In this document: one piece after another, positions 43,709-43,945 of the stretch
How the letters are laid out: the number at the start of each line of letters is the position of its first letter
How positions within the stretch are numbered: position 1 is the first letter of the stretch
NCBI RefSeq assembly: GCF_041248615.1
Contig: NZ_CP158426.1
Direction: 5' to 3' (one strand)
DNA from: Escherichia coli
Lineage (GTDB): Bacteria; Pseudomonadota; Gammaproteobacteria; Enterobacterales; Enterobacteriaceae
DNA length: 64,000 bases
The notes under the pieces: generated by a model
Seen by the model: the letters and a program-made list of their open reading frames with translations, nothing else
What the model was told of the DNA's origin: nothing
The model's database searches: none
Program-made: the position numbers and the translations under genes

Positions 43709-43945
43709 CTGGCGCAGGGAGCGCGCAGGGGGCGGCCAATCGCCGCCGCCCCCTGCACCCCCAGGCTCTGGCGAACAAAATCGCCGCTGCGCGGTTCCCT
43801 CAGCTTATCCCTTGCGGCTACCGGGTCGGGCGCAAGGGAACGTCCCTGTAAGATGCCCCCTCGCCGCGCATCCATGCGCGTCGCCCCGGCCTCCAGGGAA
43901 CGCTTCGGCGATTTTGACGCCACCAACACCCGTGCGGTCTTTTTG
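43709..43945. repeat. GC-rich palindrome-dense intergenic element of unknown function
   Basis: ~240 bp, much more GC-rich than its surroundings, with a 12-bp perfect stem (gcagggggcggc/gccgccccctgc) and further palindromes (cccttgcg/cgcaaggg, gcgcat/atgcgc); ends in a T-run on the plus strand. Confidence 0.4.

Follow-up and report, generated by a model that had tools for sequence, protein, structure and literature searches.

A TRIP1d copy of the TRIP1/Replication Risk Sequence repeat family between alx and sstT of an Escherichia coli chromosome

The 64,000-nucleotide stretch of Escherichia coli DNA analyzed here (assembly GCF_041248615.1, contig NZ_CP158426.1; referred to below as the window) is 100% identical to strain ST2747 and contains the genes sstT (positions 42172-43416) and alx (44032-44997), both encoded on the minus strand and separated by a spacer of 615 bp. 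Within this spacer lies a block whose GC content (0.63-0.71 in 100-nt windows over 43700-43949) stands out from that of its flanks (0.34-0.45) and from that of the window as a whole (0.50). An earlier inspection of the DNA without database searches (the sequence-only reading) had singled out this block and considered that it might be a dispersed repeat, a structured small RNA, or a recombination or binding site. We found that the block is TRIP1d, a copy of the TRIP1 repeat that is also named Replication Risk Sequence (RRS). The element is real, non-random and structured; it has already been described and is therefore neither new in itself nor the representative of a new kind.

The TRIP1d repeat occupies positions 43672-43935 (264 bp, 65.9% GC), and its sense strand, that is, the strand containing the G-quadruplex (G4) motif, is the minus strand. 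Its right end is located 96 bp past the alx stop codon (44031-43935) and its left end 255 bp before the sstT start codon (43672-43417). When the borders were set by BLAST comparison with paralogous copies, the left one fell at 43672 and the right one at 43938-43955, which makes the element slightly wider than had been assumed in the sequence-only reading. Embedded in the repeat is the equivalent of the 222-bp RRS core (43706-43927, minus strand; alignment columns 14-236), with a GC content of 69.8%. The TRIP1 repeat was first named by Rudd in 1999, and the study by Li et al. (2024; Genes 15:236, PMC10888264) distinguishes five locus-specific types: TRIP1a (aqpZ-ybjE/lysO), TRIP1b (putP-ycdN/efeU, 146 bp in length owing to an internal 125-bp deletion), TRIP1c (yohG-yohI/dusC), TRIP1d, and TRIP1e (copA-ybaP). 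These authors describe TRIP1d as a 264-bp element that follows the alx stop at a distance of 96 bp and precedes the sstT start by 255 bp; it is 89% identical to TRIP1a and present in 1,565 of 6,725 genomes (23%), and only five TRIP1 loci are used across thousands of genomes. The published TRIP1d coordinates fit our block to the base and, taken together with 89.6% identity to each K-12 RRS over the 222-column core and an exact copy of the 20-nt G4 motif, they identify the window block as TRIP1d. Locus, length and gene distances are the same; GC content (65.9% here, 62-65% published), identity to TRIP1a (87.3% here, 89% published) and frequency of the allele (31% of complete genomes here, 23% of 6,725 published) differ in nothing of substance; both descriptions concern the same element.

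Membership of the block in a dispersed GC-rich repeat family, as the sequence-only reading had suspected, was borne out by a megablast search with positions 43700-43950 against 5,426 complete E. coli genomes. Matches were recovered at 16,039 places in 5,425 of these genomes (median three, range one to five per genome), and full-length relatives were present in 5,383 of them. The further copies are found at yohP-dusC, aqpZ-lysO and putP-efeU, the published TRIP1c, TRIP1a and TRIP1b loci. The block matches a characterized repeat family of known function, an outcome that the sequence-only reading had itself named as one that would refute its proposal. Over 267-268 alignment columns, the window copy is 87.3% identical to K-12 TRIP1a and 86.9% identical to K-12 TRIP1c (the BLAST alignments span positions 1-267/284), while the two K-12 copies are 98.2% identical to each other across exactly 222 columns. 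The short TRIP1b form at putP-efeU has both ends, the 12-bp hairpin described below and most of the G-rich run in common with the window copy; with its length of about 150 bp, it differs in the loss of the whole two-hairpin core through a deletion between the internal direct repeats CCCCGGGCTCTGGCGAAC and CCCCGGCCTTCAGGGAAC, and its own run of guanines reads GGGACAGCAGGGGGCGGCGG instead of the 20-mer present in the RRS.

Other classes of E. coli repeats are likewise GC-rich, palindromic, intergenic and dispersed, among them BoxC, REP/BIME and RSA, and we separated BoxC and RSA from TRIP1 by length and copy number. The suggestion that the block might be BoxC-like does not hold, since BoxC is 56 bp long and present in 33 copies in K-12 (PMC5172473), whereas TRIP1 measures 264 bp and has three to five copies. 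RSA (150-151 bp, six copies in K-12; PMC5172473) came under suspicion on account of the approximately 150-bp short form and was rejected, as only three TRIP1 places exist in K-12 even when blastn with a word size of 11 is used. We also discarded a miniature inverted-repeat transposable element (MITE): no target-site duplication is present at the borders, the ends have only a weak GCTCTTT(T)A / TAAAGAGC similarity, and the alternative alleles replace the whole spacer and leave no clean insertion site. A scan of 100,044 species genomes (one per species), for which two short degenerate patterns from a translated frame served as an insensitive bait, confirmed copies in Escherichia records and otherwise only in one metagenome-assembled genome (MAG) and one probable contaminant contig. 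Pham et al. report that the RRS is conserved across enterobacteria and nearly identical in Kluyvera; given the insensitivity of our scan, this discrepancy neither confirms nor refutes the published conservation. The paper on YohP makes no mention of a repeat downstream of yohP. A REP/BIME-type sequence that is unrelated to TRIP1d is present in the yohD-yohF spacer of K-12 (L001:239-316) and scores 49.8 bits against the Rfam family naRNA4, for which the threshold is 59.5 bits.

The internal architecture of the window copy corresponds closely to what the sequence-only reading had described. The perfect 12-bp stem with its 8-nt loop, GCAGGGGGCGGC-N8-GCCGCCCCCTGC (43725-43756; arms 43725-43736 and 43745-43756; helix 10 of the predicted fold), is present, as are the inverted repeats cccttgcg/cgcaaggg (a perfect match of 9 nt, 43808-43816 and 43831-43839) and gcgcat-ccat-gcgc (43862-43871 and 43874-43883). 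To these we add a 16-nt closing inverted repeat (43776-43791 and 43901-43916) that had gone unmentioned. The G-quadruplex-forming 20-mer GGGGGTGCAGGGGGCGGCGG is found on the minus strand at 43743-43762, in part coincident with the 5' arm of the 12-bp hairpin; it is an exact match to the published motif, occurs a single time in the whole window and on the minus strand only, was absent from 100 shuffled sequences, and is exactly preserved in 16 of 25 fetched loci. The left end of the repeat (43675-43724) is richer in AT and is closed by a 7-bp helix between 43718-43724 and 43675-43681 on the minus strand; it holds promoter-like hexamers and is conserved in all copies, the short TRIP1b form included.

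Folding of the 284-nt segment 43672-43955 yielded predicted energies of -145.4 kcal/mol for the minus and -133.1 kcal/mol for the plus strand, with z-scores of -4.66 and -4.68, respectively, and not one of 200 shuffled sequences folded as well; the modelling thus confirms that the predicted structure of the element exceeds chance. An alignment of 18 distinct long copies, read on the G4 strand and derived from E. coli, Escherichia whittamii, two further Escherichia species and one MAG, gave an RNAalifold consensus with 76 pairs in a branched structure, in which 99.3% of the pair cells are canonical. It is built from a closing helix of 20 pairs, a pair of apical hairpins, the 12-bp hairpin and a terminal helix of 7 bp by which the AT-richer left end is joined to the core. 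In the window copy, the long closing helix (43769-43922, minus strand; arms 43900-43922 and 43769-43792, 20 predicted pairs) encloses the branched core, within which hairpin 1 (CGACGCGC-AUGGAU-GCGCGGCG, 43862-43883) and hairpin 2 (43828-43860, helices 7 and 8, apical sequence UUACAGGGACGUU; ACAGGGAUGU in the K-12 copies) lie side by side on the minus strand. Compensatory double changes were detected at seven pairs, of which hairpin 1 holds three, the 12-bp hairpin two, and hairpin 2 and helix 3 one each. Thus, three of the eight pairs of hairpin 1 differ from other copies, the loop being invariant in the 17 copies that possess this hairpin, and in three other copies two C-G pairs of the 12-bp stem have jointly become A-U with the stem left intact; in helix 2, no cell is unpaired, and such changes as occur are few and lead to G-U. 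The covariation score was reached by none of 500 shuffled alignments, and in slid controls pairing dropped to 41-48%.

This covariation fits folded DNA and folded RNA alike, as the compensatory changes are swaps between G-C and A-T that support the folding of either DNA strand or of an RNA equally well. The G-U wobbles (85 cells on the G4 strand would become mismatches on the other strand, compared with four in the converse direction) and the predicted energies (the G4 strand folds 12-24 kcal/mol better in all 18 copies) favor the minus strand, but they are weak evidence because the structure was predicted on the G4 strand, which is itself G-rich.

What such a structure may do is best appreciated from the two copies that Pham, Cox, Goodman et al. 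rediscovered in K-12 as RRS, with RRS-lysO corresponding to TRIP1a and RRS-dusC to TRIP1c (PMC10287960, PMC11194060). These reports describe the K-12 RRS as 222-bp near-perfect repeats, each positioned 650 kb from dif. The strand with GGGGGTGCAGGGGGCGGCGG blocks DNA polymerases I, II and IV (Pham et al., 2024, PMC11194060), and when the lagging-strand template carries the G4, there arise gaps of up to 2 kb onto which RecA and SSB are loaded. At least one RRS copy is conditionally essential in K-12, and the deletion or inversion of both alters supercoiling genome-wide; the gap has been proposed to act as a topological swivel, and the RRS as a relief valve at the boundary of the terminus region (Ter) (PMC10287960, PMC11194060). 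Orientation matters for these effects: no RecA or SSB peak was seen in vivo at the inverted RRS (PMC11194060), and a preprint (10.64898/2026.06.16.732529) reports that templates in native orientation produce a gap at nearly every encounter, while in vitro those with the G4 on the leading strand produce smaller gaps, of about 330 nt, in about 66% of the encounters. The RRS is among the few sequences proposed to programme single-stranded gaps in replication. The only other programmed gap-forming element that the RRS authors name is the pilE G4 of Neisseria gonorrhoeae (PMC11194060, 10.64898/2026.06.16.732529), which is also a G-quadruplex that triggers gap formation; it differs in having no sequence relation to the RRS, in its need for a dedicated small RNA promoter, in serving antigenic variation, and in not being a dispersed repeat. 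The polymerase block, the gaps and the rearrangements discussed in this text are accordingly properties that the literature has demonstrated on other copies, while family identity, locus type, G4 motif, conserved structure and orientation are those of the window copy itself.

The orientation of the window copy can be derived from synteny. The plus strand of the window corresponds to the minus strand of K-12, in which alx is located on the plus strand at 3.239 Mb. The K-12 origin oriC lies at about 3.93 Mb and dif at about 1.59 Mb. From these positions it follows that alx belongs to the counter-clockwise replichore, which is copied toward lower coordinates, so that the plus strand of K-12 serves as the leading-strand template here; as the G4 strand of TRIP1d is the minus strand of the window, and hence the plus strand of K-12, it would be the leading-strand template. 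The same reasoning reproduces the published assignment of RRS-dusC and RRS-lysO to the lagging-strand template, and the GC skew of the window plus strand is positive (+0.025 overall, and in six of eight segments). Synteny and GC skew together therefore point to a G4 strand on the leading-strand template, the orientation that has been published as weak or inactive. TRIP1d does not have the native RRS configuration, in which the G4 lies on the lagging-strand template and the copies are symmetric about dif, and its own position is symmetric to that of no other copy about dif.

In comparison with the K-12 RRS (Pham et al., 2023, 2024; Kusi-Appauh et al., 2026, preprint), the window copy is identical in the G4 20-mer and in the 12-bp hairpin and has the same predicted branched fold; it differs in that its hairpin 1 stem is rewritten by three compensatory changes, that it lies about 0.7 Mb from oriC instead of 650 kb from dif, and that its G4 strand is the leading- and not the lagging-strand template. 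Members of the family are non-coding, GC-rich DNA elements of about 265 bp that fold, once one of their strands is exposed, into a very stable branched ('double-Y') structure together with the G-quadruplex/hairpin module, and in the K-12 copies the G4 strand, when folded on the lagging-strand template, stalls the lagging-strand polymerase and leaves a gap that becomes covered by SSB and RecA. By homology, the window copy would be expected to have the same capacity to stall polymerases; at its locus, the weaker C-rich strand would face the lagging-strand polymerase, and few or small gaps are predicted. As a dispersed repeat with approximately 90% identity, TRIP1d should furthermore be able to recombine homologously with the other copies. 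We regard it as very probable that this description, a TRIP1d/RRS copy that shares the polymerase-stalling capacity of its relatives and behaves like an inverted RRS, accounts for the block as a whole.

Several considerations weigh against this interpretation. The K-12 RRS have been studied directly, whereas TRIP1d, the locus copy of which is absent from K-12, is known from its sequence; it departs from the K-12 RRS at about 10% of the core positions, and these differences include the three stem pairs in hairpin 1 and one mismatch in hairpin 2. Judged by the missing RecA and SSB peaks at the inverted RRS, TRIP1d may do nothing at the replication fork, and the proposed role at the Ter boundary cannot apply, as stated, to an element that does not flank Ter. 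TRIP1d is absent from about 69% of E. coli genomes, K-12 included, and is therefore dispensable, and the natural orientation polymorphism of TRIP1a and TRIP1c sits uneasily with a strictly orientation-dependent function. Finally, our assignment of the replication orientation assumes that the strain has no local inversion, an assumption backed by a modest GC skew. [quoted passage not shown] TRIP1d would then offer a useful context in which to ask if position and orientation of the RRS matter, since natural E. coli copies in the 'inactive' orientation constitute a natural test of the orientation-dependent relief-valve model. This orientation and the position away from Ter, together with the architecture of the core that is reminiscent of TwoAYGGAY RNAs and CsrA-binding sites (see below), are the aspects that are worth passing on.

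The alternative with the best prospects, although we rate it clearly below an even chance, is that TRIP1d has no function of its own at this locus and is a selfish or neutral repeat that was spread by copying or recombination and by horizontal exchange of intergenic alleles, and that is tolerated between alx and sstT. An allele query spanning both junctions found the window allele in 1,659 of the 5,426 complete genomes (31%), and a K-12-like allele is present in 2,582 (48%); these two figures imply that at least one further allele must exist. In K-12, the alx-sstT spacer measures 398 bp, can be aligned colinearly with the window no further than about position 43601, and carries a different GC-rich repeat (CCCTCTCCC...GGGAGAGGG...GGGGTGAGGG) with no similarity to TRIP1d; the allelic segment in which the window deviates from K-12 (43602-44031) comprises TRIP1d and about 70 and 96 bp of unique flank. 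This presence/absence polymorphism and the unrelated repeat-bearing allele of K-12 are what one would expect of a neutral repeat, as are the copy number of one to five, the internally deleted 150-bp derivative at TRIP1b, the natural 11-bp and 25-bp deletions in other copies, the near-restriction to Escherichia records in our scan, and the occurrence of both orientations at three loci with non-homologous junctions. The fold, by contrast, has been kept by compensatory changes with almost no broken pairs among copies that are about 87-94% identical, the G4 20-mer is exact in most fetched loci, and at least one copy has been retained in all but one of the complete genomes. Nor does the element have notable terminal inverted repeats, a target-site duplication or a linked transposase, and across thousands of genomes it occupies five loci only.

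A second alternative places the function at the level of RNA and is, in our view, improbable. The minus (G4) strand would be transcribed as a 3' extension of alx and adopt a fold resembling that of TwoAYGGAY RNAs, and one CsrA dimer would dock onto its two loops (AUGGAU and ACAGGGACGU), so that CsrA would be titrated or the transcript would come under its control. An Rfam scan of positions 43000-45600 found no family at threshold, the only relevant match being a sub-threshold one to TwoAYGGAY (RF01731). Three TRIP1 copies match this family over its full length (1-168) on the minus strand (E values 0.054-0.33), the window copy with 29.9 bits and two others with 30.9 and 31.5 bits; all three scores fall short of the 43-bit gathering threshold, with marginal E values, and the hits, being paralogues, do not count as independent. 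Hairpins 1 and 2 of the window copy align to the first and second AYGGAY hairpin of the family. Both loops have an invariant GGA: loop 1 (AUGGAU) fits AYGGAY, and loop 2 (AGGGAC here, AGGGAU in K-12) does not; the outer stem is long. The TRIP1 loop sequences, ACAUGGAUGU combined with either ACAGGGAUGU (as in the K-12 copies) or ACAGGGACGU, come near the CsrA consensus derived by systematic evolution of ligands by exponential enrichment (SELEX), with natural variants at the R position being A or G. This consensus reportedly reads RUACARGGAUGU and is said to go back to Dubey et al. in 2005. The variant ACAGGGACGU of the window also occurs in one of the Psychromonas seed sequences of TwoAYGGAY, whose Psychromonas members are multi-copy as well. 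CsrA binding of TwoAYGGAY RNAs has been proposed (Gardner and Eldai, 2014), and a non-coding RNA role for TRIP1 was also suggested by Li et al. (PMC10888264).

The genomic context of the minus strand speaks on both sides of this CsrA proposal. The spacer scan yielded no terminator separating the alx stop from the element, the minus strand of which is co-directional with alx, and the G-U pairs described above are biased toward this strand; that bias, however, is to be expected of a G-rich strand on which the structure was predicted, the fold z-scores are equal on both strands, and the compensatory changes fit folded DNA as well as RNA. The spacer scan found no promoter on the minus strand, and the orientation of the copies relative to the genes is inconsistent and even flips between strains at the same locus. 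In the published tables from crosslinking and immunoprecipitation sequencing (CLIP-seq) of CsrA in K-12, a strain that is devoid of TRIP1d, none of dusC, ybjE, alx and sstT has a listed peak, and dusC, yohP, aqpZ and ybjE are absent from the peak table. TRIP1 also differs from CsrA-sequestering RNAs of the CsrB/CsrC type, having only two GGA loops and no CLIP-seq peak in K-12.

Detached from the question of function at this locus, one may ask if the two-hairpin core of TRIP1/RRS is a diverged, GC-rich relative of TwoAYGGAY, a relationship that we consider unlikely. Either the RRS would then be an RNA that binds a CsrA dimer, or the TwoAYGGAY 'RNAs' of gut Clostridia and Psychromonas would be DNA-level fold-back elements of the RRS type, in which case they would perturb replication. 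TwoAYGGAY (RF01731; Weinberg et al., 2010) likewise consists of two adjacent hairpins with A(Y/G)GGAY loops inside a long outer stem, is likewise multi-copy and has no fixed relation to genes. It differs in that the seeds examined are AT-rich, while the window copy is GC-rich and has AGGGAC as its second loop, and in that no function has been demonstrated for it, while other copies of the E. coli element have a demonstrated activity at the DNA level. Among the papers searched, none of those that mention TwoAYGGAY is concerned with RRS or TRIP1, and the RRS/TRIP1 sections examined mention neither the motif nor CsrA.

We deem it equally unlikely that the element is a 3'-end, stability or terminator element for the alx transcript that stands in for the different GC-rich palindromes of K-12. 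It begins 96 nt past the alx stop, and the intervening sequence holds no other terminator-like site; K-12 has other GC-rich inverted repeats at the same position, and the reversed TRIP1a allele of O157:H7 lacks the aqpZ terminator that the K-12 allele possesses. Against this, no U-tract follows any of the minus-strand stems, and at other loci and in other alleles the element lies antisense to the upstream gene. An effect on the alx 3' end would moreover be a side effect of any stable structure and would leave the conservation of the family unexplained.

The plus-strand small RNA of about 235 nt envisaged in the sequence-only reading, which would start from a promoter at 43673-43702, end at the T-run 43940-43944 and lie antisense to alx-sstT transcription, is hardly credible: the hexamers TTGCGC (43673-43678, conserved in all copies) and CATATA (43697-43702) with their 18-nt spacer do exist, ggtcttttt can be read at 43936-43944, and the plus strand also folds well, but each hexamer agrees with the sigma-70 consensus at only three of six positions, the scan did not call the site, TTGCGC overlaps the arm 43675-43681 of predicted helix 11 (paired with 43718-43724) and is thus part of the repeat, the T-run is specific to the window copy (GCGGCCTATTG or GCGGTTTGTAA in others), no terminator-like site was called on either strand between 43417 and 44031, and the plus strand is predicted to be 12-24 kcal/mol less stable in all 18 copies, with 81 wobble cells turned into mismatches. 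The sole sigma-70-like call in the spacer is at 43943-43972 on the plus strand (TTGTAA, 18 nt, CATAAT; 9 of 12 matches), where it lies across the right border of the repeat and is directed, in antisense orientation, into the 3' end of alx; with 0.4 sites expected in shuffled sequence, it may be a chance occurrence. Coding potential was rejected as well. The 91-aa frame on the plus and the 102-aa frame on the minus strand, which the sequence-only reading had rightly taken for artefacts, are interrupted by stops in the K-12, Res13 and Ecol656 copies and by a 1-nt deletion in that of O157. One frame is open in all long copies, as can be expected at 66-70% GC, and has no conserved start; annotators should be aware that open reading frames called in TRIP1d are spurious.

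The orientation alleles deserve a separate description. In some strains or species, the 258-275-bp element is inverted relative to the flanking genes at yohP-dusC, aqpZ-lysO and alx-sstT, and the adjoining junction segments, roughly 50-80 bp apiece, cannot be aligned between these alleles in either orientation. Li et al. report reversed copies for 27% of TRIP1a and 49% of TRIP1c, and forward orientation for all 1,565 E. coli copies of TRIP1d (PMC10888264). We considered an invertible DNA switch (inverton) and rejected it as a simple flip, since the orientation alleles differ by about 10% and their junctions are non-homologous; judged by their sequences, the variants are old, diverged alleles and not an active switch. 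In E. whittamii, the TRIP1d copy at alx-sstT (L024:2469-2736) is reversed relative to both genes and has an A/T variant of the 12-bp hairpin, GGGGGAGGAGG...CCTCCCCC. TRIP1a is inverted in the lysO-aqpZ spacer of O157:H7 (L005:2332-2788) in comparison with that of K-12 (L010:3859-4352); the reversed allele lacks the aqpZ intrinsic terminator (AGGCCTGGCGTAATGTCAGGCCTTTTTTT in K-12), and the G4 strand of its TRIP1a lies 44 nt beyond the aqpZ stop and is co-directional with this gene. Two natural deletions were seen in Escherichia sp. MOD1-EC7003: in its TRIP1c copy (L023:2469-2727), 25 nt are missing and with them the entire AUGGAU hairpin, and in its TRIP1d copy (L012:99-371), 11 nt (TGCGCGCTCCC) are gone beside the 12-bp hairpin. 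The K-12 spacer that takes the place of TRIP1d (L009:2590-2710) contains two inverted copies of its other GC-rich repeat, CCCTCTCCC..GGGAGAGGGTCGGGGTGAGGG / CCCCTCACCCTAACCCTCTCCCC. This other repeat occurs at a median of five places per genome in megablast searches and appears to resemble BoxC.

The sequence-only reading had also entertained a recombination or binding site, an idea that is valid in a loose sense only: TRIP1 copies mediate chromosomal rearrangements, including two TRIP1a/1d events (PMC10888264), and RecA and SSB are loaded next to the RRS (PMC10287960). A TRIP1d repeat can seed large inversions. In strain GPEC1446 (NZ_CM142773.1, 2828753-2829179), the alx-sstT allele matches the window in two pieces that span 427 bp rather than 498, implying the loss of about 70 bp within or close to TRIP1d; the RefSeq annotation at this site reads 'hypothetical protein'. 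A 583-bp contig labelled Bacillus sp. EB106-08-02-XG196 (L014, coverage 0.7) is pure E. coli sequence and probably represents contamination; one flank of its TRIP1 copy comes from the putP side and the other from the lysO side, both being 100% identical to K-12, and either the assembly has produced a chimera by joining two loci across the repeat, or the contig is a recombinant of TRIP1a and TRIP1b. In the MAG 'Proteobacteria bacterium OH_SBlB_131' (L021:2105-2389 and 2657-2790), a 2.8-kb contig has at its end two TRIP1 copies in inverted arrangement that are separated by only about 270 bp.

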